From positions 1-61,477 of the forward strand of contig CAZXFE010000001.1 in NCBI GenBank assembly GCA_964639795.1: a stretch of DNA of 61,477 nucleotides. Reading direction: 5' to 3'. Positions 2,607 to 46,178 of the stretch are shown piece after piece. Origin of the DNA: an uncultured Enterobacteriaceae bacterium (lineage in GTDB: Bacteria; Desulfobacterota; Binatia; Bin18). How positions within the stretch are numbered: the stretch's first letter is position 1; the number at the start of each line of letters is the position of its first letter. A program made the translations under genes and the position numbers. The notes under the pieces are model-generated. The model was not told where the DNA came from. It made no database searches and saw only the letters and a list, made by a program, of their open reading frames with translations.

Positions 2607-5600
2607 ATGCAGACTAGTGTTGATCATAGAACGCTTTTCCACCCTCTGGTCGCAGAGTGGTTTTCCTCCGAGTTCGCGCGTCCAACGGCGGTTCAGGAAC
2701 AGGGTTGGACATCAATCTATGCGGGTAAGGACACGCTGCTTGCCGCGCCCACCGGGTCGGGCAAGACACTTGCCGCGTTTCTTTGTGCGATAGACAAACT
2801 GACCAGAGCGGCGATCGCGAAGCGCCTAGAAGACCACACCTATGTGATCTACGTCTCACCACTGAAGGCCTTAGGGAATGACATAGCCAAGAACTTGGCC
2901 TATCCGCTTTCCGGAATTCGGAAGCTCGCTGAACCGAGTCCCTATACTGTTCCACAGATCCGAAGTGCTGTGCGAACCGGGGACACGCTGACAAAGGACC
3001 GGCAACGACAGTTGAAAACCCCTCCGCATATATTGGTCACGACCCCTGAATCGCTCTATATCCTCCTCACTGCGGAAAAAAGCCGACAAATGCTCAAAGC
3101 GGCCTCGACCGTCATAATCGATGAAATCCATGCCATGGCAAACGATAAGCGCGGCTCACACCTGGCACTCACGCTGGAACGGCTCGACGCGCTGGCAGAA
3201 AACAAACTTCAACGCATCGGATTATCAGCAACTCAGAAACCTATCGAAGAAGTAGCCCGTTTGTTGGTGGGTCATGGGCGCTGCCACAGGGGCAAGCCAA
3301 CCTGTCAGATTATCGATGTCGGCCATAAACGCGAGATTGAGCTGCGTATAGAGACTCCAGAAATCGAGCTTGGGCCCATAGCATCCCATGAACAGCGGGA
3401 CGAAATGTACGAGCGTCTGGTGCGCCATGTCGAAGCACATCGTACAACGATCATATTTGCGAATACGCGCCGTCTTGTAGAACGGGTAGCGCACGCCCTA
3501 AGTGACCGGCTAGGAAAGGAGCGGGTCGTCGCACACCACGGCAGTATGTCACGCACGGCACGGCTAGCCGCAGAAGAAGGGCTCAAAGCCGGCACAATTC
3601 CCGTGGTAGTCGCCACCGCGTCCCTAGAATTGGGTATAGATGTCGGCCATGTAGACCTGGTCTGCCATCTCGGTTCCCCAAGATCTATCGCGACGCTTCT
3701 CCAGCGCGTTGGACGATCGGGACATTTCCTAGGCGCGATACCAAAAGGAATCATATTCCCTTTCACGCGGGACGATCTGATCCAAGCCGCAGCAGCGGTG
3801 CGAGCCGTGAAGCTGGGACAACTCGATACGCTGCATATTCCCGAAAACGCGCGAGATATACTCGCTCAGCAAATGGTGGCTACCGTGGCCTCGGAAGGAG
3901 AGGTCCATACAGAAACGCTCTGGACACTTGTACGGCGTGCGTATCCGTACCGCCGCCTCGAACGAAAAGACTTCGATGACATATTAGCCATGTTGTCAGA
4001 TGGCGTCTCCACAAGGCGAGGCCGGAGGTCGGCGCATCTACACTATGACCGAGTCAACGAGATAGTGCGTCCTAGACGCGGAGCGCGACTAGCGGCCATC
4101 ACGGGCGGCGGAGCTATTCCGGACACTGCTGACTATCGAGTGATTGAGGAGCCGGCTGAAACCTACATCGGTACTGTCAACGAAGACTTCGCGATTGAGA
4201 GCATGGCCGGGGACATCTTTCTTTTGGGGAACAGATCGTGGCGGATCCGCCGAGTCGAAGCAGGAAAGATACGTGTGACAGATGCACAAGGTGCACCACC
4301 GCACATTCCATTCTGGCTCGGGGAGGCTCCGGCGCGAACATTTGAGCTATCCCAAGCGGTCTCAGATCTTCGTAGCGAGATTGCCGAGCGCGTAGAGCAC
4401 CATGACTCGGCTGAAGAGTGGCTTAAAAAAGAGACGGGGATAGACCCGTTGGGTGCCGTTCAGATGATCCAGTATATCGCAGATACGGTGGCCACTCTTG
4501 GCTGCGTACCGACTGTCGATACGATTGTCGCGGAACGGTTTTTCGACGAATCCGGCGGGATGCAACTAGTTATCCACTCACCGCTTGGAGGATATATCAA
4601 TCGTGCATTTGGACTTGCTTTGCGAAAGCGATTTTGTGTGTCGTTTGATTTTGAATTACAAGCGGCGGCCACCGATGACGGGATCGTTATTTCGCTCGGG
4701 GAGCAGCACAGTTTCCCTCTGGATTCGGTATTCTCGATGATTTCTTTACGGACCGTAGAGGCAGATCTTACACAAGCGGCGCTCCAATCTCCCATGTTTA
4801 CCAGTCGGTGGCGCTGGAATATTACGCGCGCCCTAGCACTGCTGCGACACAGCGGCGGAAAACGTGTTCCCATGCCCATTCAGCGCATGCGCGCGGATGA
4901 CCTACTGGCTGCGGTGTTTCCTGCTCAGGTTGCGTGTGGAGATAACCATCTCGCCGGGCCAATCGATTTGCCGGATCATCCGCTCGTGAATGAGACGAAG
5001 GAAAACTGTCTGTATGAAGCCATGGATCTCCATGGTCTCAAAGGGCTCCTTTCGAATATACGCTCAGGGGCGGTGGCCACTGTTACCGTGGAGACCCGTG
5101 CGCCATCCCCGATGTCACATGAAATACTGAACGCCAACCCGTATGCTTTTCTTGATGATGCGCCGTTAGAAGAGCGACGTGCACGCGCAGTATCTTTGCG
5201 CAGAACCGACCCCGACCTCGCTACAGGTATGGGCGCGCTTGACCCCGCCGCGATCGATACGGTGAAAGCGCAAGCATGGCCAGAGGTGAGAACCGCTGAT
5301 GAGCTTCACGACGCACTTTTGACATTATGCGTTCTCCCAATATCCGAACTAGGTGCCTGGAAGGAGTACGTTCCCACTCTGAAAGAGGCTGGCCGCGTGT
5401 TTCACCTAAAATTGCCGGGCTGCCAGGGATTCCTGGTACCAGCTGAGAGAGTAGAACTTGTGAGGAAGGTCTATGCCGGTGCTGAAATAACGACAGGCGA
5501 ACAATTTTTGGACGCAGAGTTTCCAGACGAACCCGTGCTAGAGATCGCTCGTGGTTGGATGGAACATATTGGCCCCGCCAGCGCCAAGGAGCTTGCATTT

Positions 5601-6893
5601 AAGCTTGCCCTCACACCGGCAGCGGTAGAGTCCGTGCTGGCGCGCTTAGAATCGCTTGGGAGCGTGCTGCGGGGAACGTTTACACCCAATGCGACCGATG
5701 TCGAGTGGTGTGAAAGGGGTTTGCTGGCGCGTATTCATCGCTATACCATCAGCAAGCTACGTAAAGAGATCGAGCCGGTGTCTCCAGCGGATCTCATGCG
5801 ATTCTTGTTTAAGTGGCAGCACGTCACTCCAGGAACGCAGCTGCATGGGAAAGATGGAATACGGGAAACTATTTCTCAGTTGCAGGGGATAGAATTGCCA
5901 AGCCCAGCCTGGGAGCAGGTCGTGTTCCCTACGAGAATTGCCGAATACACCCCTGAACACCTCGAACAACTGTGTTTGTCAGGGGAAGTCATGTGGGGCC
6001 GACTGGCAGTGACTCTGGACGATACCCAGGCGAGTACGGCTCGCCATCCCAAGCAGACGCGTTCTGCTCCTCTGGCGTTTTTTCTGCGTGATCATCTAAC
6101 GGACCTTATCGAAGCACCTGCATCCGAGGAAGGCTGGGCCGCGACTCTCTCCCAACATGCCACCGAGGTTCTTAGACACCTACAAACCCACGGAGCCTCG
6201 TTTCTCACCGATATATGCCGCGTCCTAAAACGGCTTCCGGCTGAGGTCGAAGAGGCATTGTGGCAACTTGTTGCGTCAGGAGTCGTGACAGGCGACGGGA
6301 TAGCCGGATTGCGTACACTCCTCTTGCCCGCGGTAAAACGAGCCCCAAAACGCTCACGACGATCCCACCTTCGCGGCATCCATGGCAAATCGGCAGCTCG
6401 ACTTATGCCGGTTGGTCGGTGGTCCTTACTATGCCCATCGGTCGAAGATCCTGAAGTGGGAGAGGACGCCGCTGAGTTCGGCACCCATCAATTGTTGAGG
6501 CGTTACGGCATAGTTTTTCGTGATATGCTCGTTCGAGAGCGCCATGCCCCACGATGGCGTGACGCTCTTCCTGTTCTACGACGTCTTGAGGCACAAGGCC
6601 AGCTGCGAGGCGGCCGCTTTGTGTCCGGCTTCGTGGGTGAACAGTTTGCCCTTCCCGAAGCAATAGATACACTGCGAGCGGTCAGACGTAACCAAGGGGA
6701 AGATAATATCATCCTCATAAATGCATCGGATCCCTTAAATTTCGCCGGTATACTGACGCCGGGCGATCGGGTATCACCCCTCTCCGGTCAGGTTATCGCC
6801 TATCGAGACGGAGTCCCCTTGGAAGTGGGGGATCTTGGCCAGGTAAAAAGCAAGCTGCAGAATCAGCTGCTCCCCATGGTGAGCACGATGTAG
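2607..6893 (+). CDS. lhr: Lhr-type large ATP-dependent SF2 DNA helicase
   Basis: 1428-aa ORF with motif I AAPTGSGKT, motif II DEIH, and the long Lhr-specific C-terminal region. Ends in TAG. Confidence 0.95.
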   Translation: MQTSVDHRTLFHPLVAEWFSSEFARPTAVQEQGWTSIYAGKDTLLAAPTGSGKTLAAFLCAIDKLTRAAIAKRLEDHTYVIYVSPLKALGNDIAKNLAYPLSGIRKLAEPSPYTVPQIRSAVRTGDTLTKDRQRQLKTPPHILVTTPESLYILLTAEKSRQMLKAASTVIIDEIHAMANDKRGSHLALTLERLDALAENKLQRIGLSATQKPIEEVARLLVGHGRCHRGKPTCQIIDVGHKREIELRIETPEIELGPIASHEQRDEMYERLVRHVEAHRTTIIFANTRRLVERVAHALSDRLGKERVVAHHGSMSRTARLAAEEGLKAGTIPVVVATASLELGIDVGHVDLVCHLGSPRSIATLLQRVGRSGHFLGAIPKGIIFPFTRDDLIQAAAAVRAVKLGQLDTLHIPENARDILAQQMVATVASEGEVHTETLWTLVRRAYPYRRLERKDFDDILAMLSDGVSTRRGRRSAHLHYDRVNEIVRPRRGARLAAITGGGAIPDTADYRVIEEPAETYIGTVNEDFAIESMAGDIFLLGNRSWRIRRVEAGKIRVTDAQGAPPHIPFWLGEAPARTFELSQAVSDLRSEIAERVEHHDSAEEWLKKETGIDPLGAVQMIQYIADTVATLGCVPTVDTIVAERFFDESGGMQLVIHSPLGGYINRAFGLALRKRFCVSFDFELQAAATDDGIVISLGEQHSFPLDSVFSMISLRTVEADLTQAALQSPMFTSRWRWNITRALALLRHSGGKRVPMPIQRMRADDLLAAVFPAQVACGDNHLAGPIDLPDHPLVNETKENCLYEAMDLHGLKGLLSNIRSGAVATVTVETRAPSPMSHEILNANPYAFLDDAPLEERRARAVSLRRTDPDLATGMGALDPAAIDTVKAQAWPEVRTADELHDALLTLCVLPISELGAWKEYVPTLKEAGRVFHLKLPGCQGFLVPAERVELVRKVYAGAEITTGEQFLDAEFPDEPVLEIARGWMEHIGPASAKELAFKLALTPAAVESVLARLESLGSVLRGTFTPNATDVEWCERGLLARIHRYTISKLRKEIEPVSPADLMRFLFKWQHVTPGTQLHGKDGIRETISQLQGIELPSPAWEQVVFPTRIAEYTPEHLEQLCLSGEVMWGRLAVTLDDTQASTARHPKQTRSAPLAFFLRDHLTDLIEAPASEEGWAATLSQHATEVLRHLQTHGASFLTDICRVLKRLPAEVEEALWQLVASGVVTGDGIAGLRTLLLPAVKRAPKRSRRSHLRGIHGKSAARLMPVGRWSLLCPSVEDPEVGEDAAEFGTHQLLRRYGIVFRDMLVRERHAPRWRDALPVLRRLEAQGQLRGGRFVSGFVGEQFALPEAIDTLRAVRRNQGEDNIILINASDPLNFAGILTPGDRVSPLSGQVIAYRDGVPLEVGDLGQVKSKLQNQLLPMVSTM

Positions 6894-7695: not shown

Positions 7696-8428
7696 CTACC
7701 CAATCTGCAGGTGCGAGTTTATCCACTGTCCTACAGTCTCTGCCAACTCGTCATATACTTCCTGATCCGTTCGACCTGAACGTTTGAGTAAATGAAAAGA
7801 GTGGTCTCCACCGTCAACAATATGTAATGTAGCTAGCTTCTCCAGGCGGCGACACAGCGGTCTGATAAGGTCGAGTTCGCCAGGAGCATCTCTGATTCCC
7901 TACATGGAAAGCACCGGCACCTTCACTTCGGCGGTGTTCGCCTCGGTCGCTTGAAGGCTTGCGTGCAGAGTGAAGCGGAAAGCCGAAGAAGACGAGACCT
8001 TTGACCCGAGGAATACGGCCTTCTGCGGCGACAAGTGAGGTCATCCGCCCGCCCATGGACTTGCCCCCCGCCAGTATAGGCAGATCACCTACAGTTTTCG
8101 TAGCAATCTCAACTGCAGACCAGATCGTGTCGAGTAGCGTCGCCCGGGAGTCCGGCCTTTTTTTTACCCTTTTCCACATATGGAAACTGATATCGAAATG
8201 TGGCCACCCCTCGTATTGCAAGCAGGTCTGCCATGGTTTGCATAAACGGGTGCCGCATTCCTGCACCCGCACCGTGCCCAAAAACGAGTTATGTGTGGGC
8301 TTCTCCCATTCCGGTCTCTTGTCCTGGCGCTGCCAGACTGACTTCGAAAGAATAGTCCGCGCCTGCTTGTACGCTGTAAATCGTCCGCGTAGCCCTGAGT
8401 GCGTTATAGTCTTACGAATTGCAGACAA
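7696..8428 (-). pseudogene. alpha/beta hydrolase (dienelactone hydrolase / KANL3-Tex30-like) with two frameshifts and one TAG
   Basis: Pieces in two frames: FGHGAGAGMRHPFMQTMADLLAIRGVATFRYQFPY.EKGKK / RPDSRATLLDTIW..LAGGKSMGGRMTS..FFGFPLH / VKVPVLSM-TAG-GIRDAPG..IVDGGDHSFH. The frameshifts are at an A8 run (8158-8165) and a 5-nt run (8280-8284). TAG is at 7900-7902. Confidence 0.7.
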
Positions 8429-9533: not shown

Positions 9534-11450
9534 CTAACTTTGGGCCATGTCTTGTCTTGGTCGTAGGCGATAAGTTTCCCTGTCTCGATCTCCATTTTCT
9601 TTCCTACTCGCAGGTTTATCCTCCTTGTAAAATGCGACGACGCTCTCCGCTACCTTCCGAGTTACACCGGCCACCTTTTGTAGTTCCTCGACGCTGCCTG
9701 TCTTGATCTTCTTGAGGCTGCCGAAGTGTCGCAGCAGAGCGTTACGTGTGACGGGTCCTACGCCGGGAATATTCTCCAATGTGGATTGAAACTGATCCTT
9801 CGAGCGAAGCTGTCGGTGGTAGGTAATAGCAAATCGATGGGCCTCGTCCCGGATGCGCTGTAACAGGAAGAGTGCCGTCGAGTTGCGTGCAAGAACGACA
9901 GGGTTCTTCCGCCCTGGCAAGAAAACCCGTTCGCTGGAATGCTGAACCTCCTCCTCAAAAGCATCACTCTTGGTACGCATCTTAGCCAGCCCGATCATGT
10001 CGACGGTATTAATGTCTAACTCTTTTAGAACGGCCATCGCGACACCTAGCTGGCCTTTCCCGCCATCCACCATGAGAAGATCCGGGAATGCGTTGTCTTC
10101 CACTGCACGCTTATAGCGGCGTGTCAGGACCTCGTACATACTCGCGAAGTCGTCAGCCCCTTCGACTGTCTTGATACGGTACCGACGATAACTACCTTTT
10201 ACGGGCTCTCCTTCGTCAAAGACGACCATGGACGCCACGGACATTTTGCCTTGAATATTAGAAATGTCGAAACACTCAATGCGTTTAGGGGCGTTTGTCA
10301 GTCGCAGTGCCCGTCTAAGGCTTTCTATAGTCTTTTCTCGCTGTTCCCTGGTCTGCCGCTTCTCAGTAAAACTTTGGTTCGCGTTCTCTGTCGCCATCTC
10401 TACCAATCGAACCTTGTCGCCCCGTTTCGGTGCGGAGACCATCACCTTCTTATTCTTACGCTCGGTGAGAATTTCTGAGCGAATCTGCATGTCTTCTAGC
10501 GGGACAGGTAAAAGGATTTCGTCTGGAACGAAACGTGCTCCATAGTAAAACTGCGTCAATATTTCGCCTAGAACCCTCTCATCAGGCAGTTCATTGTCGT
10601 CGAAACTGTATCCAATATTCCCTTGCAGTTTGCCGGCGCGGATAAAGAGCACCTGTCCTTCTACAGTGCCTCCCTCACGATAGATCCCGAAGACATCCTG
10701 ATCGTTCCCCAATGGCGTGGACACATGCTGGCTTAGCGCCGTTTTCTCGATCGAGCGGATCTGGTCACGAAAACGCGCCGCCTCTTCGTACCGTTCGGCC
10801 TGCGAGGCCTCCCACATGCGTGTATTTAAAGTATCAACTAGGGATTTATTTTTACCTTGCAATAACAAGACAGCATTATCAACTTGGCGTCGATACTCTT
10901 CCGGATCAACGGCAAGCGTACACGGTCCCAGACAGCGATTAATTTGGTATTCAATGCATGGACGAGATCGATTCTTAAAAACTGTGTTTGAGCAGGTGCG
11001 AACGGGAAAAACCGTGCGACTGGTGTCCAGCGTTTGTTTTATAGCGACGCTTGAATGAAATGGGCCAAGGTATTTGTTCCCGTCTTTCCGAACCTGACGT
11101 GTGAGCAGCAGGCGAGGCCATTCCTCGGTCGTTGTAACCTTGAGGTGCCAGTAGGATTTGTCGTCTTTGAGCCGTACGTTGTATCGTGGCTTGTGTTTCT
11201 GTATGAGGGTGATCTCAAGGAGCAACGCTTCTTTCTCATTCCTGGTCACTACAACATCGAGGTCCCTTACCTTGTCAACCAGGAAGGGAATTTGTACTCT
11301 GCCATCTCCGCCACGCATATACTGTTGGACACGACTGCGTAGGTTTTGTGCTTTCCCTACATAGGCTACTGACCCAGACTCGTCCTTAAAAAGATATACC
11401 CCGGGCTTAGATGGGAGCGTTTTTACTTTGTCCTCTAGTTGAACAGACAT
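9534..11450 (-). CDS. uvrC: excinuclease ABC subunit C
   Basis: 638 aa. N-terminal GIY-YIG (KPGVYLFKD..VAYVGKAQNLRSRVQQY), a central UvrC/UVR region and a C-terminal helix-hairpin-helix pair (IPGVGPVTRNALLRHFGS). Confidence 0.95.
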   Translation of the reverse strand: MSVQLEDKVKTLPSKPGVYLFKDESGSVAYVGKAQNLRSRVQQYMRGGDGRVQIPFLVDKVRDLDVVVTRNEKEALLLEITLIQKHKPRYNVRLKDDKSYWHLKVTTTEEWPRLLLTRQVRKDGNKYLGPFHSSVAIKQTLDTSRTVFPVRTCSNTVFKNRSRPCIEYQINRCLGPCTLAVDPEEYRRQVDNAVLLLQGKNKSLVDTLNTRMWEASQAERYEEAARFRDQIRSIEKTALSQHVSTPLGNDQDVFGIYREGGTVEGQVLFIRAGKLQGNIGYSFDDNELPDERVLGEILTQFYYGARFVPDEILLPVPLEDMQIRSEILTERKNKKVMVSAPKRGDKVRLVEMATENANQSFTEKRQTREQREKTIESLRRALRLTNAPKRIECFDISNIQGKMSVASMVVFDEGEPVKGSYRRYRIKTVEGADDFASMYEVLTRRYKRAVEDNAFPDLLMVDGGKGQLGVAMAVLKELDINTVDMIGLAKMRTKSDAFEEEVQHSSERVFLPGRKNPVVLARNSTALFLLQRIRDEAHRFAITYHRQLRSKDQFQSTLENIPGVGPVTRNALLRHFGSLKKIKTGSVEELQKVAGVTRKVAESVVAFYKEDKPASRKENGDRDRETYRLRPRQDMAQS

Positions 11451-11669
11451 GGAATCCTCATCAGAGTAGTACGACTAATTTTACGTTGTCTGTTACAGAA
11501 GAGTCTAGTGGCTGCGAGTTGGGATTATGGAGCGCAATCAAGGAAGTGGGGGCAGCCTCGCTCACGTAATATCGCAAAGGGTACAACTCTTAGTCGGCCG
11601 CGTAAGGAGCTTCAATCAACTCAAAAAGAACTCGCGCGGAAACTGAGGGAAGGAGGAGAATGATAACCC

Positions 11670-14305: not shown

Positions 14306-14314
14306 GGAGGTGCG

Positions 14315-36400: not shown

Positions 36401-36489
36401 CCGATCATTCGGTTAAGTCAGCGTAAGCATATAACTTTGCTAACCTCCCTATAATTAAACATGTCATTTTGTGCCCGGTGACCCATTAA

Positions 36490-36830: not shown

Positions 36831-37367
36831 ATGCAAACATTCCGCCAGTTATCTTCCCATCTCGCCTCAAAGCTGTCCGAGGAAATTCGTCAGCAGTTCG
36901 GAATAATCCCAGAAACAGGTCCACGATCGGAGGACTTCGCTCCTGTATTTCTCTCATTGGACCACGCTGTCACTATTGAAATCCATCCAGTATGGAAAGG
37001 TGAGGACACAGCATCTCATGCAACCAATAGGGCCGTCATCAGGGTCCGCAGCGCGCAGCAACATGCCCGCCATAGATCACTGGCATTTCGCCCGGACGGC
37101 GGTCGGTGGCCGATACAGAGGATTGTGTCTGCCGCGAGATCATTCCAAAACGAAAATAGGCGTTTTGCGTCGCTGGCAACAAAGACTCTGTCGAAACGGG
37201 AGCGTTTAAGAACGAAAGGAACGCAAGAGATCCCGCAGGTTCCTTCCGGCATGTACCTGCTACGCTTAGCGAATGGTAGGTATCGTATCACTATTACTGA
37301 GCTGACTCTCCCCTTAGAACCAACTCGCCGATTAGTGCGTTTTGTCGAGGAGAACACTGAGAGTTAA
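36831..37367 (+). CDS. hypothetical protein (178 aa)
   Basis: ORF only. No family recognised. Confidence 0.4.
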   Translation: MQTFRQLSSHLASKLSEEIRQQFGIIPETGPRSEDFAPVFLSLDHAVTIEIHPVWKGEDTASHATNRAVIRVRSAQQHARHRSLAFRPDGGRWPIQRIVSAARSFQNENRRFASLATKTLSKRERLRTKGTQEIPQVPSGMYLLRLANGRYRITITELTLPLEPTRRLVRFVEENTES

Positions 37368-37379
37368 AAAAGTCGTACC

Positions 37380-37736
37380 ATGAAATGCGAGATATGCGGT
37401 GGAACCATTTCGGGGCATCCTGATCTTATCCATAGTGAGTGGGGACCCGTACCAGTTCACTTCGGCTGTAAAGATCTCTGGGCCCCGTCTATTGAAGCGA
37501 GGCAAGATCTGGTAGAGCTCACCATCGTAGCCCTGGGCAAGCGTTTCGCCGCTCCCTCTGAAGACCTGCGCACGCGCCTGGAGGAGCCAGCTGAATCGGC
37601 AAGTAACCTAGGACACGAAGAAGAAGCGCCGTGGATAGCAAATTACCTGAAGAACTCGCGGGTAGCCGATTCTCATATGCCCGGGGTTGAGCCATTAAAA
37701 GGAATCGAGGAGGTTATTCATCGAGGTTCGCAATGA
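37380..37736 (+). CDS. hypothetical protein (118 aa) with N-terminal CxxC
   Basis: Begins 12 nt after the previous ORF. MKCEICGG..HFGC. Confidence 0.4.
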   Translation: MKCEICGGTISGHPDLIHSEWGPVPVHFGCKDLWAPSIEARQDLVELTIVALGKRFAAPSEDLRTRLEEPAESASNLGHEEEAPWIANYLKNSRVADSHMPGVEPLKGIEEVIHRGSQ

Positions 37737-37776
37737 TCACCAGTAGGGATCGTAGTTTAGTCTTGACTCGTGAAAA

Positions 37777-37938
37777 ATGCTTCCAACGGTTGTCTACCTC
37801 CTTATAATAGTCGTCCTCGCGGCGTATAATCCACAAAAAGACTTCTTGGTTCTTTTCTTAGTTGCCGGCACACTTTGGTTCAGCGCATCCGGTCGTCATC
37901 ATGACGGTCCGATACGCACGTACGTACCTGGGGACTAG
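37777..37938 (+). CDS. small membrane ORF (53 aa)
   Basis: MLPTVVYLLIIVVLAAYNPQKDFLVLFLVAGTLWFSA.., two hydrophobic segments. Too short to appear in the ORF track. Confidence 0.3.
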   Translation: MLPTVVYLLIIVVLAAYNPQKDFLVLFLVAGTLWFSASGRHHDGPIRTYVPGD

Positions 37939-38074
37939 GAAATAGACATTAAGTATCTCAAAGCGGTAGTCGGACAACTTCGAGCGGAGCCGCTATCGAA
38001 ATCCAAATGAGGGATGACTACGATGTGCTGGGTTATCAGGAACTTACCGGCGCTAGGATCCCCAACGGAACCTT

Positions 38075-38722
38075 ATGAAAACACAAAGCGGGCTGGAGAA
38101 GGGACCGGATAACAAGCAACGCTGTTGGTGGTGTCTCGGCAGCGCTGACTACCTCACCTATCATGACAACGATTGGGGATATCCGGTAACAGATGACTTT
38201 AAACTCTTTGAGAAGTTGAGCCTGGAAGGTTTTCAGGCTGGCCTCAGTTGGCTTACCATTTTACGCAAGCGAGAAAATTTCCGGCAGGCGTTTGCGGACT
38301 TCGAATATCCTGTAATTGCGCGATACAGAAAGCAGCGCGTGGAGACACTGCTCAAGAACTCGGGGATTGTTAGACATCGTGGTAAAATAGAAGCAGTATT
38401 TCATAATGCCAAACAGGCATGTGAGCTCACGGACGAATATGGCTCGCTCGCGGCCTACATCTGGCAATTTGAACCCACCAAAAAAGCGCGTCCAAAACGG
38501 ATCGACCTGTCCACAGTGAGCAAATTGACCATGACCCCTGAATCGCACGCCCTATCACGTGACCTTAAAAAACGGGGATGGAAGTTTGTAGGACCAACCA
38601 CAATGTATGCCTTCATGCAAGCGATGGGATTAGTGAATGACCATCTGCATGGTTGTGTGATACGAGGACGGGTTGAACGCTCTAGGCGTGCCTTCTCTCC
38701 CCCGCCATCTCTCCCAACGTAG
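38075..38722 (+). CDS. tag: DNA-3-methyladenine glycosylase I
   Basis: 215 aa. CWWC.., YHDNDWGYPV, LSLEGFQAGLSWLTILRKRENFR, GLVNDHLHGC. Has about 25 extra C-terminal residues relative to E. coli Tag. Confidence 0.9.
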   Translation: MKTQSGLEKGPDNKQRCWWCLGSADYLTYHDNDWGYPVTDDFKLFEKLSLEGFQAGLSWLTILRKRENFRQAFADFEYPVIARYRKQRVETLLKNSGIVRHRGKIEAVFHNAKQACELTDEYGSLAAYIWQFEPTKKARPKRIDLSTVSKLTMTPESHALSRDLKKRGWKFVGPTTMYAFMQAMGLVNDHLHGCVIRGRVERSRRAFSPPPSLPT

Positions 38723-38852
38723 TCATTGAACATGCCGAATGTCCGAAACTCTCTGCAGCGTGTCTTCTTACTGCGGCGGCGCATGCCGGCAATGATGAGA
38801 GGGTTTGTCGAGATTACCACGCTTCAGCCGTGCCCGATTGCAGCCCCAAGAC
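38723..38852 (+). repeat. direct repeat copy 2 (about 130 bp)
   Basis: Starts at the nucleotide after the tag stop codon. Same orientation as copy 1. Confidence 0.85.
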
Positions 38853-39020
38853 GGGCGAGAACTCTACGGCCTCACAGAAGATAGATAGCAGAGGCCCATG
38901 AACACAGTCTCTTCTGACATATGCGGTATCGCTGCTGCGTCTTCTTCTCAAGTAACGCAACATCCTGAAATCCGGTTCAATTATTTCATCTCTGAGCGGG
39001 GCAGGGAAACCAAAAGGTAG

Positions 39021-39386
39021 GCCGTTGTCCGAGCCGCTGTTTTACCCGAACAGTCTGACGGCTCACGACGTCAGAACTATCAGGTTTGTGGGGAAACGGC
39101 CCTTATTCAGTCGGTGCTTGAGGACGCCATTAATTGCTTTCAAAAACATTTTAGCGCACCACAGTTCCGAGATTATCGCATCCCCAAAGAGGCAGATTAG
39201 TGGTTCTTCACCGATGACTATAAATGGCCGGTCTCATTTGTAAATATCTGCTCTGTGCTTAACATTGATCCTGAGTATATTCGGCAAGGGCTCAACAAGC
39301 AGAAAGCCGATATTCGGGTCGAAATCCCGCAACACGCACTGCATCTACTCATTATCGTCCGGCCTCGGTTGCAAGCCGCAGTGTAG
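39021..39386 (+). pseudogene. small conserved-hypothetical gene with an in-frame TAG and no start codon
   Basis: ..ALIQSVLEDAINCFQKHFSAPQFRDYRIPKEAD-TAG(39198-39200)-WFFTDDYKWPVSFVNICSVLNIDPEYIRQGL.. Confidence 0.45.
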
Positions 39387-39482
39387 ACTAGCTGTCCCCC
39401 TCCTGTTTGCACGAAGGGGCGGTCATGTAAGCCTGGCCCTTTTTTATGTCAACCCTGTACGTAAATACTAAACCAGTGCATA

Positions 39483-40028
39483 CTACGCAGCCTGCTGCGC
39501 TTTTTGGGTGAGCAGCATGCCAATGATCTGATCAATAACCTGATCAGCTAATGCCCGAACTTCGTCTTTGGTCTTGGGCTGAATAGGATGCTCGACCAAT
39601 ATGGGTTGGTATTGCGCCATTCCCAGGGCGGCACACTGCGCATTGGCCGCACCGATGAATTCCGTGGTCGTTACGTTTGCCGTAGGGATACCGTTTTCTT
39701 CAAAATAAATGACATCGTGCGAACTGCACGAGATGCAGGCCCCTCAATCGCTGAGGGCTTCGATCACCGCATCGCACTGCTCACGTAGTTCCACCCGGAT
39801 CGGCTCCGGTGCAGGTCGTGTAACCGTAGGTTTCATGCGCCGGAGCACCATCTTGACTCCGTACTGCTCGCGCAGGACTTCCTCTACACGGTCAAGAAAG
39901 AAAGAGCCCTTGGCTTTACTGATGTCAAGCAAGCCAATAGTAGTCCCAGCTAGACTATCCAGCCGGGGTGCAAAATATTTCTGGGAACGTTCGACCTTAT
40001 CGGTAGGATCGAGTAAGAACTCACCCAT
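39483..40028 (-). CDS. UGSC-like selenoprotein (181 codons, TGA at codon 95)
   Basis: Track ORF 39744..40028 ends ..CDAVIEALSD at TGA (39744-39746). The same frame continues GACISCSSHDVIYFEENGIPTANVTTTEF..EHPIQPKTKDEVRALADQVIDQIIGML to TAG at 39483. The motif is U-G-A-C. Confidence 0.75.
39715..39731 (-). other. SECIS-like hairpin downstream of the UGA
   Basis: U16-C-G-U-G-C / AGUUC loop / G-C-A-C-G-A32, counted from the U of UGA. The 6-bp stem places G23-U24 in the apical loop, as in the E. coli fdhF SECIS. Confidence 0.55.
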
Positions 40029-40042
40029 AGTATACCTCCTCT

Positions 40043-41149
40043 TTAAGTCTGAATCTCCTTGGTTGTAATACGGCTACCGGCATCAAAGCCGGCCCAGCCT
40101 TGCACCGCAGCGGAAAATCGACCTGCCGTGCCGCCGGCTACGATAATAACAATGTTTTCTGCTTTAGGAAACTTAGGAAATAAGGTGTCATCGGTTGGGG
40201 GTTCGCGGTCTTTCTTGGGCGTGCGTAGCATGCTTACCCCAACCCCTTCACCGCCGTTCACACCAGGACGCAGTTCCCGCAAGGGGCGGCGAATATTCTC
40301 ATACAGGAATTGTCGTAGGTCGTTCTTGGACCATCTGTCTTGAGCAAACGTTTTGGCATGTTCGGGACAGACCACGAGAACGGTATCGGAAAATAAAGGA
40401 TAATTTTTATGGTTCCACAGTGATCCCATGGACCAGCCCAGCGACAAAGCTAGCTGTTCCGCCGTGCGACTGGCGTGATCGTTAATTTGCATGGGAGAGT
40501 GGCCGCCGAACAGCGTAATCGTACTTTGATCAGGTTGATAGCCATTCTCGACATGGAGCGGCTCCCATGGACTGTCTTCTTCATTTTCACCCACGCAGAA
40601 CGTGTACTGGGCGGGGTGGCCCAGGGTGGCTTTGGTAATCTCGTTCGGCTTGGCCCCCCCAATATTAATAATAATGAGCCGGAGCGCACGACCAATCGTC
40701 GCATTAGCACGAAAACCGTGACCCAAGGCGTTATGGCCACCATTCACGCCAATGGCATTCCGAATCGGCCCATTGATAATGGCCATGGGCGTGGCAGAGA
40801 AGGTAGTTACGTTGATCCCATGAATGCAGAACTGCTCTTCACACATGGCTTCCACACCGGCCAACACGACTGGGAGGTAAGACGGGTGGCAACCGGCCAT
40901 GACCGCGTTAATGGCAATCTTCTCCACTGTCGCTCGACCATAGTTTGGCCCGATTTCTCCAACTATCTCTTGCGGATCACGAGGAGTTGCCGCCAACATA
41001 CGCGTAACGCGATCTTCGGTCGGCGGCACAACGGGCAAACCATCAGTGACACCGCGTTCGTACAGGAGCTCAACCGGGTCGTCTTGGGCTTGTATGCGCT
41101 GGGAGTGCAATTCAGCGATTTCTGGCATAAGAATTCTCCATATAGCCAA
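40043..41149 (-). CDS. conserved uncharacterised protein (368 aa)
   Basis: Lies 14 nt upstream of the selenoprotein gene and 3 nt downstream of the cyclase gene. Contains GVTDGLPVVPPTEDRV, INAVMAGC, RANATIGRALRL. No family name recalled. Confidence 0.7.
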   Translation of the reverse strand: MAIWRILMPEIAELHSQRIQAQDDPVELLYERGVTDGLPVVPPTEDRVTRMLAATPRDPQEIVGEIGPNYGRATVEKIAINAVMAGCHPSYLPVVLAGVEAMCEEQFCIHGINVTTFSATPMAIINGPIRNAIGVNGGHNALGHGFRANATIGRALRLIIINIGGAKPNEITKATLGHPAQYTFCVGENEEDSPWEPLHVENGYQPDQSTITLFGGHSPMQINDHASRTAEQLALSLGWSMGSLWNHKNYPLFSDTVLVVCPEHAKTFAQDRWSKNDLRQFLYENIRRPLRELRPGVNGGEGVGVSMLRTPKKDREPPTDDTLFPKFPKAENIVIIVAGGTAGRFSAAVQGWAGFDAGSRITTKEIQT

Positions 41150-41152
41150 GTG

Positions 41153-42106
41153 CTATTTAATCGCCTGTGGATTAATCGGTGAGCCAACGGCACCGGTTAT
41201 GGGCAACGGCGGGGCAACAAACATGAACTCGTATACTCTGTCATTGGCACAGTCATCAGCCAGCCCTTCAAGATCAAATATCTCGCCGACCAGCATGCCA
41301 GCATGCACAATCAAAATCATATGCAGAGGCTGAAAGATGTCCGGCGTTTCGTTGGGAATGACTTCCGTACCCCAGGTGTCGGTGGCATAGCCGGCAATTT
41401 CTTTTTCACAGATCCAGGTTGCGCAGTCGACGCCCAACCCAGGCGCTGAACCGCCACTGTATTCGCCCCAGCTAGCTTCTGCCCGTACTTGGCCGATTTG
41501 ACCAGTCCGAATCATCACGATATCGCCAGTACCAATGCTGACTTTACCCATGTCAGCTGCACCATCAAGGTCGGCAGGATAAATAGCCTCGCCCGGCTCT
41601 AGCCACTGCTTGCCTTTAAAACGCGGGATATCCAGTAGTACACCCCGTGAGACGATCTTGTCTGTCGCGTTCTCCATGCCGTTTTTCTTCGCGCCCGTAC
41701 TATTCACCTCACTAGCCGGATAGCCGTTGTACATTTGGCCTTGGTACATGATGTGAGCCAGAGCGTCCCACTGGGTTGCACACTGGAGCGGCATGGTCAC
41801 AGCGTCATCGGTATACTGAATAGTTGGCAAATGATCCTGCGCACCGATACTGATGTCGCCTCCGTCTTGGAGCATGAAGTGGATGGGGTTAAAGCGTCCA
41901 AAAGACCCCGTCTGGGGGCCTTTATCGTCAAATGGGATTGCCAGAGAAATCACTTTGCCTTGTTTGACGAGCTTAGAAGCTTCAATAATCTTTTGTGGCG
42001 TAACGTAATTGAGCGTCCCTAGTTGATCGTCGTCGCCCCACCTACCCCAGTTTTTATACTTCTCAGCGAGAGCCTTTACATCATCCATTGAGTAGTGTTT
42101 TGCCAT
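41153..42106 (-). CDS. cyclase-family protein (kynurenine formamidase-like fold)
   Basis: 317 aa. WGRWGDDDQLGTLN, QWDALAHI, GGSAPGLG, as in the putative cyclase family (PF04199-like). Confidence 0.75.
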   Translation of the reverse strand: MAKHYSMDDVKALAEKYKNWGRWGDDDQLGTLNYVTPQKIIEASKLVKQGKVISLAIPFDDKGPQTGSFGRFNPIHFMLQDGGDISIGAQDHLPTIQYTDDAVTMPLQCATQWDALAHIMYQGQMYNGYPASEVNSTGAKKNGMENATDKIVSRGVLLDIPRFKGKQWLEPGEAIYPADLDGAADMGKVSIGTGDIVMIRTGQIGQVRAEASWGEYSGGSAPGLGVDCATWICEKEIAGYATDTWGTEVIPNETPDIFQPLHMILIVHAGMLVGEIFDLEGLADDCANDRVYEFMFVAPPLPITGAVGSPINPQAIK

Positions 42107-42169
42107 GATCGTTCTCCTCCCGACTTTTGTGTTTCATATCTCTCAGTAACCCGTCAACAGGTTGGCGCA

Positions 42170-43168
42170 TTATGTACCAAGACGAAGACCAAGCACGATA
42201 TTTCGGCCTTTCAGGAACTCTGAAATGGGGAGGGGCTTCTTGCCTTCAAGCTGAACCGTGTGAACATTGAGACAGCCCTTTCCGCTCACACCGGTTGCAA
42301 TAGAGAGGTGGACTGCCGCGATACCGATTACCGAACCAGAGGCGGTTGAGACAGGTGGAACGAAAACATTTTCCTTGTCAACACAAGCACCAAGGATTTT
42401 AAGCCGCTTACCCGCGAGGTAGGTATAAGCAGACGGCCAGGGATGGAACGCCCGGATGCGTTGTTCTATGCTCACCGCATCCTGCGTCCAATCGATCTGC
42501 CCATCTTCCTTTTTGAGCATAGGCGCGTAGGTGGCGGTTTCTTCTTTTTGGGGAGACGCAAAAAGCTTCCCTTGCTTAAAGAGCGCCAATGCCTCTACAA
42601 GCGCCTGCGCCCCAAGAATAGCAAGAGTATCGTGCAGACTCCCTCCAGTTTCATTATCTGCTAACTCAACCTGCGTCTGGAGCAGAATATCACCTGCATC
42701 CATTTGCTCACTAATTTTCATGATTGTGACACCGGAATGTGTTTCTCCTCGGGCGATTGCCCACTGAATAGGAGCAGCGCCCCGATACTTGGGGAGGAGG
42801 GAAGCGTGCACGTTGATGCAACCGTATGACGGCAGATCGAGAATCGGACGCGCGAGGATCCTTCCGTACGCAGCGACAACAATGAGGTCTGGTTGCCAGT
42901 CTCGGAGGTGAGCTAGCGTCTCGGCGGTGTGTATCTTTTGCGGCTGAAAAACGGGCACCGAATGTGCAGACGCAAATTTCTTGACGGGAGGGGCATGGAG
43001 GATCATACGACGGCCAGACGGCTTGTCGGGCTGCGCGACGACGCCAACAACCTCATCCTCACTATCCAGGAGAGCCCGGAGCGAGGGCACCGCAAAATCC
43101 GGCGTACCCATGAAAACGAGCCGGAGTGGTCGGGACAACTCTGGAGGCGAAATAAACATTGTCATCAC
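42170..43168 (-). CDS. fmt: methionyl-tRNA formyltransferase
   Basis: LRLVFMGTPDFAVPSL, VVAQPDKPSGR, INVHASLLPKYRGAAPI. The exact start is uncertain. Confidence 0.9.
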   Translation of the reverse strand: MMTMFISPPELSRPLRLVFMGTPDFAVPSLRALLDSEDEVVGVVAQPDKPSGRRMILHAPPVKKFASAHSVPVFQPQKIHTAETLAHLRDWQPDLIVVAAYGRILARPILDLPSYGCINVHASLLPKYRGAAPIQWAIARGETHSGVTIMKISEQMDAGDILLQTQVELADNETGGSLHDTLAILGAQALVEALALFKQGKLFASPQKEETATYAPMLKKEDGQIDWTQDAVSIEQRIRAFHPWPSAYTYLAGKRLKILGACVDKENVFVPPVSTASGSVIGIAAVHLSIATGVSGKGCLNVHTVQLEGKKPLPISEFLKGRNIVLGLRLGT

Positions 43169-43238
43169 AGGAACACTGCAGACTCTGGCAAGTGTCGAGA
43201 GTCCTGCGTCAAAACAGAACGGAACAAAACACGCGCCC

Positions 43239-43778
43239 TCAGATCCCCGGAGATTCTTTACTGCGTTCGAGTGGCCGGCCTTCTCGAATAAGTTTTTTTA
43301 CCCGGCGCGCGTAGAGTTCACGTTTGAGCCGACTAATCCGGTCAATGAACAACTTTCCGGTAAGGTGATCGAGTTCGTGTTGGAGGCACACGGCAAGTAA
43401 TTTCTCAGCCTGGAACGTAATCTCTTCTTGATCCAGCGTCCAGGCCGTGACCTCAACTTTGGCAGCGCGTTTAACTTCAGCGGTATAATCCACCACACTC
43501 AAACAGCCTTCTTCCCATACAATGGAGCCCTCACTCGTGGTGATTCTCGGGTTGATGAGTTTGAGCAGCTCTTTCCCCTTTTCGTCAGGATGCGCATCAA
43601 TGACAATGATGCGGTCTTGTGAACCGACCTGGGTCGCGGCCAACCCGATACCTGGGGCTGCATACATGGTTTGGACCATATCCTCGACCAACTCAGCCAG
43701 GCTGCCGTCCATATTGGCCACTTCTGTTGCCGGCTTCTTGAGACGTGGGTCCGGATAGGTCAAGATCTCTCGAATCAT
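43239..43778 (-). CDS. def: peptide deformylase
   Basis: 179 aa. GIGLAATQVG, EGCLS, HELDHL. Confidence 0.95.
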   Translation of the reverse strand: MIREILTYPDPRLKKPATEVANMDGSLAELVEDMVQTMYAAPGIGLAATQVGSQDRIIVIDAHPDEKGKELLKLINPRITTSEGSIVWEEGCLSVVDYTAEVKRAAKVEVTAWTLDQEEITFQAEKLLAVCLQHELDHLTGKLFIDRISRLKRELYARRVKKLIREGRPLERSKESPGI

Positions 43779-43787
43779 GTTGCCCTT

Positions 43788-46178
43788 CTATACCACGCTG
43801 TACGGATCCACATCAATGATTGTTCGCACCCCTCGGGGGGGGTTGGCCTGATCAAAGGCGTCACGTGCTTTTTTGACCAGGGAGTGCAACATCGGACGAT
43901 TGGGACCCTTGACCAGCAATTGCCAACGCTCACGTCCCTTGATGCGTTCGATGGGAGCGGGAGCAGGACCCAATATCTCCAAGCTTGATGGATCTGTTGA
44001 GACGAATTCAGCAGACTGCAGTATGTCTTCGAGTTGCTGGGCGAACAGGGTTGCACTCGCCTCGACCTGCTGTCCGTCTCGTCCTTCAAAACGCATATTG
44101 ATCATCCGCGTGAAAGGCGGATAGCCAAGACGTTTGCGATAGCGCAATTCCTGAGCGGCGAATCGAGTGAAGTCATGTTGGGAAGCACACCGAATACTGT
44201 AATGCCTCGGCGCGTACGTCTGGATGATGACTCTCCCGATGTCCTCACCCCGTCCCGCTCTTCCAGCCACTTGGGTGAGCAGTTGAAAGGTGCGTTCTGC
44301 AGCGCGAAAATCCGGTCGATTGAGCGTGACGTCAGCGAGGATCACCCCGACGAGGGTGACTCCGGGAACGTCATGTCCCTTAGCGACCATTTGGGTTCCA
44401 ATCAATACATCGAACTCATGCCCACGCCAGGCGCGTAAAATTCGATCAAGCGTCCCCCGGCGCTTTACGGTGTCCCGATCAAGCCGAGCAATCCGGACTT
44501 CTGGTAGAAAATTCTTGAGTGCATCTTCAACCTGCTCTGTTCCTATCCCACTCCCAGCCAGGCTAGGCTCGTGGCAAGCAGGGCACTCATCCATGCTCCG
44601 TCTGGTAAAACCGCAATAGTGGCAGCACAGCGCTCTCCGCTGCAGGTGAAAGGTCAGGGTCACACTGCAATGCGGACATGAGAGAGCCTCACCGCACAGG
44701 CGGCATTGAAGATAATTCGCATATCCACGCCGATTGAGAAATAGGACGCTTTGCTTTCCAGCCTGATGGTTGGCAATGAGCGCGTTTTTTAAGCGTATTG
44801 AAAAGATAGGAGCCGCGTGCCCGGACCTGGCCTCATTTCGGAGGTCGATGATCTCAACTTTTGGTAAGGGGCGCGATGCAACACGCTCAGGAAGAGTCAA
44901 GGCAGTGTATTGCTGTGTTTGACTGTGTGTATAGCTCTCAAGCGATGGAGTCGCAGAACCCAAAATTACAGGACAAGATGAGATTTTACTGCGTAGAACC
45001 GCAATATCTCTTGCATTATAGCGAACTCCATCTTCCTGCTTATAGGCTGTTTCATGCTCTTCATCCACGACAATCAGTCCAAGATCAGTCAGAGGGGCAA
45101 AAACAGCCGAACGCGCACCAACAACAACCGACACCTCTCCACGGGCAATACGTTTCCACTCGATCCAACGTATTTTATCCGTCATTGCGCTATGAAGCAC
45201 AGCAACCCTACTGCCAAAACATTTTTGGACCTGAGTAACGAGTTGTTGCGTGAGTGCAATCTCTGGGACAAGGATAAGCGCGCTTTTCTTTTGCCTTACT
45301 GCTTGCCTTGTCGCCCTCAGATAAACTTCGGTTTTCCCACTGCCGGTAACTCCATACAGAAGAAAAACTCGAAATTCGCTTTTTTTTAGCGAATTTTCTA
45401 TCTCACGGTACGCATTTCGCTGGGCATCAGTCAAAGCGAGAGCCTCCCATTGAGCCCCTTCTGCCTTCTCTTCTGGAATATCCCCACCCTTTTCAACTAG
45501 TCTGCTCTCCGCTTCCCCAGATCCACTGATAGTCCGAGGTCGGGAGTACGACTCCGTGACCCGTATAAGTTTAAGCATCTCAAGATGCTCGAGCTGCTCT
45601 CTCAAAACACGCTGAGGAAAGCGGCGCCGTAGAGTTTTAACAGCCACCCGCTTCTTCTCTTTTATGTAGGAGAGCAAGTCTCTCTCATCGCCACTGAGGC
45701 CGTCAACCAGAGCGTTTTCTTTCTCCTGATCATCATCAGCGCTTCGTTCTCCTCCAGATACAAGTGTCCTCTTCTTCCTGTTTTTCCTCTTTTTAGCCGG
45801 TGTCACGAATACTGCACTCTCATTACGTGCTGTACGAGGCAGTATCGTCTGGAGAGTAGCTCCCGGCGAAGAAAAATAATATTCTGATATCCATTCCCAA
45901 AGATGTCTCATGTATTGAGTGAAAATAGGAACTTCGTCTATAATATCGAGAATGTCCTTTACTTTTTTTTGATCGACATTTCCTGAGTGAGAACTGAGTC
46001 CAACAATTATTCCCGTTATTTTCCGGCTACTTACAGGAACGACAACGCGAACCCCCTCCTGGGCACGCGAAATCAGGAGCGCTGGAACACGATAAACTAA
46101 TTCACTATTCCTGCCGATAGGAAGTGTGAGGGCGACAGAAGCGAAGCAAGGATTCGTGAAACATTCCGTGTTAAACAT
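43788..46178 (-). CDS. priA: primosomal protein N' (replication restart helicase)
   Basis: 796 aa. [15 protein letters not shown], and a Cys-rich zinc-binding insert (CRLCGEALSCPHCS..CHYCG..CPAC). Confidence 0.95.
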   Translation of the reverse strand: MFNTECFTNPCFASVALTLPIGRNSELVYRVPALLISRAQEGVRVVVPVSSRKITGIIVGLSSHSGNVDQKKVKDILDIIDEVPIFTQYMRHLWEWISEYYFSSPGATLQTILPRTARNESAVFVTPAKKRKNRKKRTLVSGGERSADDDQEKENALVDGLSGDERDLLSYIKEKKRVAVKTLRRRFPQRVLREQLEHLEMLKLIRVTESYSRPRTISGSGEAESRLVEKGGDIPEEKAEGAQWEALALTDAQRNAYREIENSLKKSEFRVFLLYGVTGSGKTEVYLRATRQAVRQKKSALILVPEIALTQQLVTQVQKCFGSRVAVLHSAMTDKIRWIEWKRIARGEVSVVVGARSAVFAPLTDLGLIVVDEEHETAYKQEDGVRYNARDIAVLRSKISSCPVILGSATPSLESYTHSQTQQYTALTLPERVASRPLPKVEIIDLRNEARSGHAAPIFSIRLKNALIANHQAGKQSVLFLNRRGYANYLQCRLCGEALSCPHCSVTLTFHLQRRALCCHYCGFTRRSMDECPACHEPSLAGSGIGTEQVEDALKNFLPEVRIARLDRDTVKRRGTLDRILRAWRGHEFDVLIGTQMVAKGHDVPGVTLVGVILADVTLNRPDFRAAERTFQLLTQVAGRAGRGEDIGRVIIQTYAPRHYSIRCASQHDFTRFAAQELRYRKRLGYPPFTRMINMRFEGRDGQQVEASATLFAQQLEDILQSAEFVSTDPSSLEILGPAPAPIERIKGRERWQLLVKGPNRPMLHSLVKKARDAFDQANPPRGVRTIIDVDPYSVV

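Follow-up and report, generated by a model that had tools for sequence, protein, structure and literature searches.

A dense, conserved neighbourhood of DNA repair genes in uncultured marine bacteria related to Candidatus Binatia

We analyzed a contig of 61,477 nucleotides (CAZXFE010000001.1; hereafter, the window) from an NCBI metagenome-assembled genome (GCA_964639795.1), and in it the interval at positions 2607-46178, where genes for DNA repair lie close together. We found that this clustering is real, significant and unusual. The gene order recurs in three relatives (here called A, B and C) and indicates that the cluster is ancestral to their clade, a genus-level group of uncultured marine bacteria with Candidatus Binatia as the nearest named relatives. 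We think it probable that the cluster is an ancestral, vertically inherited neighbourhood, similar to an uber-operon, that was later purified and compacted by erosion.

Repair genes make up most of what is intact in the interval. We assigned gene identities with NCBIfam and Pfam profile searches of the window proteins. The repair genes named in a preliminary description of this DNA were all confirmed in place, the identity of its radical-SAM gene being weak (E = 7e-4). The same description held that most of the intact genes are repair genes, and this was borne out: 13 of the 20 intact genes, with 81% of the intact coding bases, are repair genes. Intact genes cover 63% of the interval and are the longest genes in it. 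Those of the cluster are listed below, with lengths in amino acids (aa), open reading frames (ORFs) and ratios of nonsynonymous to synonymous substitution rates (dN/dS).

2607-6893, + strand: lhr, large ATP-dependent helicase of 1428 aa, intact; NCBIfam PRK13767/PRK09751, winged-helix domains in the orthologues
9534-11450, - strand: uvrC, intact; TIGR00194, 605 bits (cut-off 285); dN/dS 0.085
14371-20166, + strand: lexA-imuA-imuB-dnaE2 operon (SOS mutagenesis cassette), intact; dN/dS 0.05-0.19
14257-14970 (ORF; probable start 14371), + strand: lexA; TIGR00498
15000-15617, + strand: imuA; weak RecA match (E = 1e-4)
15595-17079, + strand: imuB; Y-family matches (Pol IV models at E = 1e-11 to 1e-12, Pfam IMS in the orthologues)
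17083-20166, + strand: dnaE2, full length; NF004225, 1317.9 bits (cut-off 939)
20160-20993, - strand: DUF2461/TIGR02453 gene, intact; TIGR02453, 151.6 bits; dN/dS 0.20
22528-23436, - strand: fpg/nei family DNA glycosylase, intact; TIGR00577, E = 1.6e-38, under the equivalog cut-off; dN/dS 0.30
25242-26024, + strand: xth1 (exodeoxyribonuclease III), intact; TIGR00633, 261.6 bits; dN/dS 0.12
27105-29078, + strand: uvrB, intact; NF003673, 1026 bits; dN/dS 0.10-0.13
30711-34224, - strand: polA-xth2 operon, both genes intact; NF004397, 1037 bits, and TIGR00195, 254 bits; dN/dS 0.14
36831-37736, + strand: orf178 and orf118, two conserved genes, intact; dN/dS 0.23 and 0.45
38075-38722, + strand: tag (3-methyladenine DNA glycosylase I), intact; TIGR00624, E = 2e-63; dN/dS 0.23
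43788-46178, - strand: priA, intact, beside the cluster; NCBIfam match

These genes form at least nine separate units, distributed over both strands. In the cassette, imuA and imuB overlap by 23 nt and a gap of 3 nt separates imuB from dnaE2; the polymerase belongs, by its score over the NF004225 cut-off, to the error-prone DnaE2 subfamily. The gene order of the cassette is identical in A, B, C and an outgroup locus (L087). The DUF2461 gene, found in B and C and not in A, is convergent with dnaE2, with a 7-nt overlap of the two ends. In the second operon, xth2 (ORF 30711-31538, probable gene 30711-31484) begins 7 nt past polA (ORF 31492-34224, probable gene 31492-34206), and the pair is also present in A, B, C and L083. 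The two xth genes are paralogues with only 29% identity, lhr has a dN/dS of 0.09 against relative B, and orthologues of the fpg/nei gene carry the Pfam domains Fapy_DNA_glyco and H2TH. In the window, the cluster does not contain a complete UvrABC set: uvrB and uvrC are intact, and the one UvrA-like gene of the cluster has been deleted. Orthologues of orf178 and orf118 were found in A, C and L083, and B has a gene of 177 aa at the equivalent position. Neither gene had a family match or a match among PDB sequences, and an AlphaFold model of orf178 made without an alignment was unusable (predicted local distance difference test, pLDDT, 33).

We found that the separately transcribed units from lhr to tag follow one and the same order in the window and in all three relatives. 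The relatives were retrieved by exact-sequence look-ups and protein searches. Their protein identity is roughly 90-96%, and all three come from marine metagenomes (among the sources are PRJNA352798 and a Tara mesopelagic fragment). For relative A we have a long-read contig of 229 kb with tag, orf118, orf178, UvrA-like fragments, polA-xth2 and uvrB at 169-186 kb; at 203-226 kb it has fpg, dinB, EVE, dnaE2-imuB-imuA-lexA and a LigD gene that is truncated. Relative B, an NCBI contig of 70 kb (GCA_964495015.1), is collinear with the window over the stretch between lhr and polA. Relative C consists of an 82-kb and a 20-kb scaffold of one sample and is the least eroded: its neighbouring genes are intact, and at least 16 repair genes stand among ~61 genes in ~62 kb. 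The first part of the 82-kb scaffold carries lhr, an abhydrolase, uvrC, an S24 peptidase, RNase H and several small genes; the middle carries Ku (283 aa), a full three-domain LigD (813 aa), GST and two uncharacterised genes; and the last part carries lexA-imuA-imuB-dnaE2, DUF2461, EVE, dinB and fpg. On the 20-kb scaffold are uvrB, RibD_C, xth2-polA, five small genes, a 1752-aa double UvrA, orf179, orf118, DUF2277 and tag. The conserved block is bounded by tag at one end and by the remnant of a redoxin gene on the lhr side.

Independent assemblies agree on this arrangement. An Illumina scaffold (L001) is 99.95% identical to the window over 12.7 kb (26343-39078), three gaps included. Because this scaffold comes from another data set and matches gaps and all, the decay described below does not stem from sequencing errors. 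That independent assemblies have one internal order in common indicates that the contig is not chimeric and that the cluster is ancestral to the clade, and the synteny comparison proposed in the preliminary description, with the order recurring in three relatives, rules out a misassembly. Homologues of PriA form a series at 89-90%, then 72-75%, then 63%, and the named matches, at 54-57%, are Candidatus Binatia. The similarity of PolA points to Nitrospirota (56-58%).

The 1752-aa protein is made of two UvrA-like halves (C, L104 2723-7981). Fragments of its gene are present in A (L082 5493-7990), and it is absent from B and the window. Other conserved cluster genes in C that have no family match are a pair of 315 aa and 324 aa before lexA (L101 4878-6826) and the trio h97-h110-h159 (L099 5186-6317).

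We compared the surroundings of uvrB and polA with those in other bacteria. The uvrB set held 80 species from among the matches listed in a scan of GTDB genomes with UvrB (best match among those listed, 65% identical), and the clade itself is not among them. The polA set held 26 metagenomic contigs of at least 12 kb from a scan of JGI metagenomes with PolA, in which one short contig matched at 92%, one without flanks at 61%, and all others at 51% or less. Both sets were used as background only. Within 10 kb of uvrB, the window has five other repair families. The 80 control species had none in 39 cases, one in 37, two in 3 and three in 1, and the single neighbours were mostly uvrA or uvrC. The polA controls had no repair family in 26 of 26 contigs. 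Judged by L087 and by these controls, the cluster is not conserved across distant lineages.

The binomial tail, calculated with an assumed repair-gene frequency of 3-5%, was 2e-11 to 4e-8 for C (16/61 genes) and 1e-11 to 1e-9 for the window (9/13 intact transcription units). Overall, the tails ranged from 1e-11 to 2e-7, or from 9e-8 to 1e-3 after multiplication by 7000 genome positions. At that assumed frequency, the clustering greatly exceeds what chance would give.

The only control species with three repair families is a Nitrospiraceae metagenome-assembled genome (L013 5184-9753) with a trio of lexA, Y-family and dnaE-like genes directly upstream of uvrB. In a Nitrospirales control (L026), tag abuts uvrB.

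We found that repair genes have been retained preferentially during erosion of the cluster. Taking C to represent the ancestor, we found that the window has kept intact 10 of 16 repair genes and 4 of 45 other genes (Fisher p = 5.6e-5; uvrB was set to intact by hand, as the automatic call was misled by a six-residue length difference). Most non-repair neighbours had earlier been described as decayed, and the counts agree: 41 of 45 are lost, compared with 6 of 16 repair genes. The six lost or broken repair genes are ku, ligD, dinB, the UvrA-like gene, the S24 peptidase gene and rnhA. The repair share rises from roughly one gene in four in C to about two in three of those that are intact in the window. 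A and B lost different subsets, LigD being truncated in A.

Several of the losses could be placed as deletions by blastn. One of ~5 kb lies between xth1 and uvrB (L088 1543-6552, compared with 128 bp in the window). Another, of at least 6 kb upstream of lexA, ends at 14268 (L084 1225-7181, compared with a single point; breakpoint 14268-14270 by blastn against L084 and L093); it removed Ku and LigD together with a glyoxalase, MerR/TPR, GST and two uncharacterised genes. A deletion of ~5 kb removed the UvrA-like gene. A further deletion, of ~7.5 kb between dnaE2 and fpg relative to A (L084 13085-22437, compared with 1.8 kb), removed dinB. Pseudogenes were traced by tblastn with the intact genes of the relatives, and the gaps were scanned with Pfam on stop-free segments of at least 50 aa in six frames, a length below which remnants may have escaped. 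The decayed genes of the cluster are:

2107-2407, + strand: redoxin (AhpC/TSA) remnant, frameshifted; three pieces by tblastn of the redoxin of C, intact in B and C
7708-8288, - strand: Abhydrolase_11 pseudogene in three frames; Pfam in three stretches, tblastn against a 233-aa gene of C (L099)
11556-11648, + strand: last remnant of an S24-peptidase gene, residues 11-41; tblastn, 258-aa gene in C
11721-12148, + strand: rnhA (RNase H) pseudogene, frameshift near residue 100-112; Pfam RNase_H, E = 1.6e-19, one frame only
13328-14320, + strand: remnants of h97, h110 and h159, small genes of C; tblastn
21998-22428, + strand: AHSA1-family pseudogene, frameshifted; tblastn in two frames, weak Pfam match
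24213-25154, - strand: PA0069/SplB-like radical-SAM gene, decayed; NF033668, E = 7e-4 over residues 137-187
29717-30250, - strand: RibD_C (dihydrofolate-reductase-like) pseudogene; Pfam over two frames, tblastn against the intact 192-aa gene of C (L104)
34225-36830, no strand: deletion gap, formerly the 1752-aa double-UvrA gene and five small genes; only h156 and h88 remnants (34245-34976)

The frameshift in rnhA, noted in the preliminary description, was borne out by the one-frame Pfam match and by tblastn with the intact 146-aa gene of C (L099), which gave two pieces that overlap but lie in different frames. The S24-peptidase gene is divergent from uvrC in C; its product matches Pfam Peptidase_S24 and had no match among PDB sequences. 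The radical-SAM remnant, the weakest of the gene calls, had no Pfam match and is also present in B (87% identity). The gap at 34225-36830 had no Pfam match, and the double-UvrA gene is absent from it by tblastn. Other recognisable pseudogenes in the gaps are an ArsC-like fragment, a UGSC gene and a response regulator.

The erosion extends beyond the cluster. The window is rich in pseudogenes: rnhA, the abhydrolase, redoxin, RibD_C and AHSA1 genes, aroC and pilMNO are decayed there and intact in close relatives. Between priA and pilP (46241-46550), only stubs of 24-41 residues are left of pilM, pilN and pilO, pilP and pilQ are open, and all five pil genes are present in the relative L095. The chorismate synthase gene aroC (49374-49922) is truncated to profile positions 156-241, its neighbours aroK and aroB are intact, and the gene has 386 aa in L095. 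From these remnants, the type IV pilus machinery of the window organism is probably defunct, and the organism may need external aromatic amino acids. The pilMNO deletion and the aroC truncation lie outside the cluster and point to erosion throughout the lineage.

The retained repair genes all have dN/dS of 0.05-0.30 (dS 0.10-0.47; full-length comparisons). By these ratios, the retained repair genes are under purifying selection.

We propose that separately transcribed repair units would have stood side by side in the common ancestor of the genus-level clade. They would have comprised a nucleotide excision repair part (uvrB, uvrC and the UvrA-like gene), a base excision repair part (fpg/nei, the two xth genes and tag), a part for translesion synthesis and SOS control (lexA-imuA-imuB-dnaE2 and dinB), an end joining part (ku and ligD), polA and rnhA for gap filling and removal of RNA-DNA hybrids, and lhr for helicase function. 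As the lineage lost genes in general, frameshifts and deletions then took ~90% of the accessory genes standing between the units, together with six repair genes, and purifying selection held the remaining repair genes. The block would thus have shrunk from at least 65 kb to 36 kb of nearly pure repair genes. The preliminary description offered a choice between a selected island and a residue of erosion. Both have a part here, as the cluster is ancestral to judge from C and erosion enriched it, and neither is sufficient by itself.

Several points weigh against this proposal. The fpg end and the uvrB end of the cluster are not joined on one scaffold in C, and the rnhA frameshift is seen on the window contig alone. 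The genome-wide frequency (3-5%) and the dispersion of repair genes are assumed values for this clade, and the evidence comes from cluster contigs, so that copies elsewhere, for example a canonical uvrA, lie outside the data. The flanks differ among the window, A, B and C, a pattern that would also fit a moving block, and the single outgroup locus, L087, is without the cluster, which may therefore be young or acquired. Vertical inheritance, like any account of why the ancestor had the genes together, is what we infer from the observed collinearity, deletions and retention.

It is possible, if doubtful, that co-location itself was selected, the block being a functional repair domain of the chromosome kept through repeated rearrangement of its surroundings. 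If so, the block would be a unit that is inherited or transferred whole, or one whose products are made and assembled together. It would then be a new example of higher-order gene organization, and the uncharacterised genes embedded in it (orf178, orf118, h97-h110-h159, the 315-aa and 324-aa genes of C, DUF2461, EVE and DUF2277) would be candidates for undescribed repair factors. If co-location was not selected, the cluster is a caution that erosion can nearly double an existing functional enrichment.

We consider it unlikely that the cluster is a horizontally acquired and possibly still mobile repair island that entered the clade whole and can relocate as a unit. Such an island would account for the fact that the block from redoxin/lhr to tag keeps its order in four genomes but has different neighbours, and for the presence of the dnaE2 cassette without the rest in L087 (DnaE2 70% identical), where ordinary metabolic genes follow downstream of dnaE2. 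The imuA-imuB-dnaE2 and ku-ligD genes are often transferred. The flanks in the window are:

80-1219, - strand: DUF502 gene (80-766; Pfam DUF502) and response-regulator homologue (878-1219); left flank, outside the cluster
38898-46178, - strand: backbone block of an h162 homologue (+ strand), frameshifted UGSC, orf368, cyclase, fmt, def and priA; NCBIfam for fmt, def and priA, Pfam Cyclase and UGSC

By tblastn, the response regulator is 78% identical to RR116 of L095 and DUF502 is 95% identical to that of L102; by blastn, L095 19999-20954 corresponds to window 1212-258. The backbone block is collinear, at 90% identity, with L095 5824-13212, where L095 is without the cluster. Compared with L095, on an A-type contig of 312 kb, window 1212-38897 replaces 6.8 kb between otherwise neighbouring genes; there, the left-flank genes lie that distance from UGSC with no repair cluster between. 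That contig runs priA-def-fmt-cyclase-UGSC, then a kinase, two response regulators and DUF502; it has no cluster gene there, and none within 10 kb of priA. In B, UGSC is followed by a response-regulator remnant, DUF502 and an amidase, after which the cluster starts with its tag end; the block of B lies a few kb off, across DUF502. The priA-def-fmt genes adjoin the block in the window and lie ~6 kb from it in B, and the attachment of priA to the cluster is only loose. To the right of the interval are the housekeeping genes pilP, pilQ, aroK, aroB, rlmD, pgeF, gpsA, yidC, jag and mnmE. On these gene orders, deletions and one block interchange would explain the flank differences, and a mobile block would explain them equally well.

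Other features argue against an island. No tRNA genes were found in the window, which had no Rfam match over its whole length; integrase, transposase and conjugation domains were absent from the six-frame Pfam gap scans and from the gene tables of the relatives; and no direct repeats were found at the block ends, the one dispersed repeat being a decayed small-gene paralogue. GC content is ~51% across the whole window (cluster 0.516, flank 0.515), GC content at third codon positions (GC3) is 0.525 and 0.506, tetranucleotide frequencies are correlated (r = 0.92), and codon use in the cluster matches that of the flanks. The block also contains polA, uvrB and uvrC, core genes that usually occur in a single copy. 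Co-transfer, as suggested in the preliminary description, was thus not supported, and the compositional comparison of the interval proposed there, made here against the flank, gave no anomaly in codon use or GC3.

It is quite improbable that the genes are held together by co-regulation as one damage-response unit, through LexA or a domain-wide factor. Consistent with such regulation, lexA lies in mid-cluster, and a candidate LexA operator (14336-14371, + strand) stands directly before its start codon. This candidate consists of two tandem 15-nt units (TAGTATACATTTGTA) that contain the palindrome TATACA-N2-TGTATA (GTATACATTTGTATAC in relatives); to our knowledge, GTATACATTTGTATAC is not a described LexA box. 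A second palindrome of 28 nt (TCCTATATTACTCG/CGAGCAATATAGGA; 14281-14308) lies ~35 nt upstream of the candidate. Both palindromes are invariant in four genomes, and C has a second S24-peptidase gene beside uvrC. However, with up to 3 mismatches allowed, neither palindrome had a further copy beyond chance in the window, the matches being at lexA only, and the same was true of a 22-nt palindrome at 14284-14305. Nor did the operator candidate or the 28-nt palindrome occur elsewhere in ~200 kb of the relatives' cluster loci. A de novo search of 13 upstream regions for gapped palindromes with half-sites of 4-6 nt found none in common, with the sole exception of the divergent radical-SAM/xth1 pair, which has one intergenic region in common. 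A promoter and terminator scan at 20-39 kb gave fewer sites than shuffled sequences and was uninformative. Because the candidate operator occurs only at lexA and there is no common palindrome, co-regulation of the whole cluster, with its units on both strands, is unsupported, and the cluster does not appear to be one regulon. The co-regulation and the shared intergenic motif raised in the preliminary description accordingly found no support.

It is very improbable that the clustering is a mere by-product of erosion, with dispersed repair genes joined by deletion of everything between them. Large deletions between repair genes are directly visible, loss of non-repair genes is far commoner, and the interval is 63% coding. 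However, C, with its neighbours intact, already has at least 16 repair genes in ~62 kb (tail 2e-11 to 4e-8), and the block has been shortened only about two-fold. That the contig is a binning or assembly chimera of unrelated repair loci is hardly credible, for although it is metagenome-derived, its junctions recur in assemblies of other samples and methods, including the 12.7 kb shared with L001, lhr to polA on one contig in B, tag to lexA on one 229-kb contig in A, and lhr to fpg on one scaffold in C.

The radical-SAM remnant and xth1 are separated by a perfect 16-bp hairpin (GACAGTAGAGCCGGCC/GGCCGGCTCTACTGTC; 25197-25233). Folding of the 96-nt region gives a minimum free energy of -38.9 kcal/mol (z = -4.5), and the hairpin may terminate transcription in both directions or be bound by a protein. 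A dispersed sequence of ~480 bp is found before polA in the window (35400-36150) and in B. B has a 70% identical copy between lexA and uvrC (L093 9103-9585), and a 103-bp piece follows directly after tag (38723-38824). The sequence appears to derive from a paralogue of the small gene h110 that has decayed. We rejected the 103-bp repeat (35912-36014/38723-38824) as an att-like site or a miniature inverted-repeat transposable element, as it is part of a decayed small-gene paralogue also present in B.

In the UGSC gene (39747-40028 and surroundings), the whole 172-position Pfam profile is matched, but over two frames. The same 94-aa gene is called in relatives (L095 12079-12363; L096; L102), so the frameshift is shared, and it would be either old or a programmed feature. 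The cumulative GC skew has its minimum at ~46-48 kb, where priA (to the left) and the pil and aro genes (to the right) diverge; yidC-jag-mnmE lies 11 kb beyond. The minimum may reflect gene strand only. At 51706-53429 are long open frames with repeated Cys-rich units (for example, CANGVIDNGMECD, CKKGIIDPGELCD and CGNGSIDPSEQCD) that had no Pfam match and presumably resemble the cysteine-rich repeats of myxobacterial surface proteins.

Bacterial repair genes are the textbook case of linked functions whose genes are dispersed and connected by regulation alone. In this clade the reverse is seen, with at least 18 genes of five repair pathways in one stretch and no detectable common operator. The four close relatives, at different stages of gene loss, are a natural experiment, in which the repair functions that are dispensable (end joining, DinB, the UvrA paralogue and RNase H) can be told from those held by selection.

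The cluster has points in common with several known systems. In the SOS regulon of E. coli and the radiation and desiccation response of Deinococcus, genes are co-regulated and scattered on the chromosome. Part of their content is shared with the cluster (uvrA/B, polA-type functions, lexA and translesion polymerases), but here the genes are co-located, with no detectable common operator. The ku-ligD end-joining pair is known in Mycobacterium and Bacillus, and C likewise has adjacent Ku and full LigD genes inside the cluster. Unlike the known pair, that of C has genes for excision repair and translesion synthesis around it; in A the pair is truncated, and the window has lost it by deletion. In classical reductive evolution, as in Mycobacterium leprae and recent host-restricted symbionts, repair genes are lost early. 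The window resembles such genomes in its frameshifted remnants, its deletions compared with close relatives and its 63% coding density. In contrast to them, it has preferentially kept repair genes, and the sources are marine water column, with no evidence of a host.

Uber-operons are conserved higher-order neighbourhoods, such as the ribosomal-protein or dcw clusters, and are ancient and widespread. As in these, separate units of related function remain neighbours in the repair cluster despite insertions, deletions and changes of flank. Unlike them, the repair cluster is seen in one genus-level clade only and is missing at the nearest outgroup locus. Literature searches for a described repair island or cluster of such breadth found nothing relevant, and we know of no described DNA-repair uber-operon that spans five pathways. 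Finally, the LexA-regulated imuA-imuB-dnaE2 cassette has been described in Caulobacter, Pseudomonas, Mycobacterium and others. The cassette in the window is like it in gene order, in its short or overlapping junctions, in a DnaE2 that scores over the cut-off and in its palindromic operator candidate. However, the cassette accounts for only 5.8 kb of a block that spans 36 kb (in C, at least 65 kb), and at least 12 other repair genes lie outside it, without its operator. The known cassette is contained in the cluster, but the cluster goes far past it in breadth.

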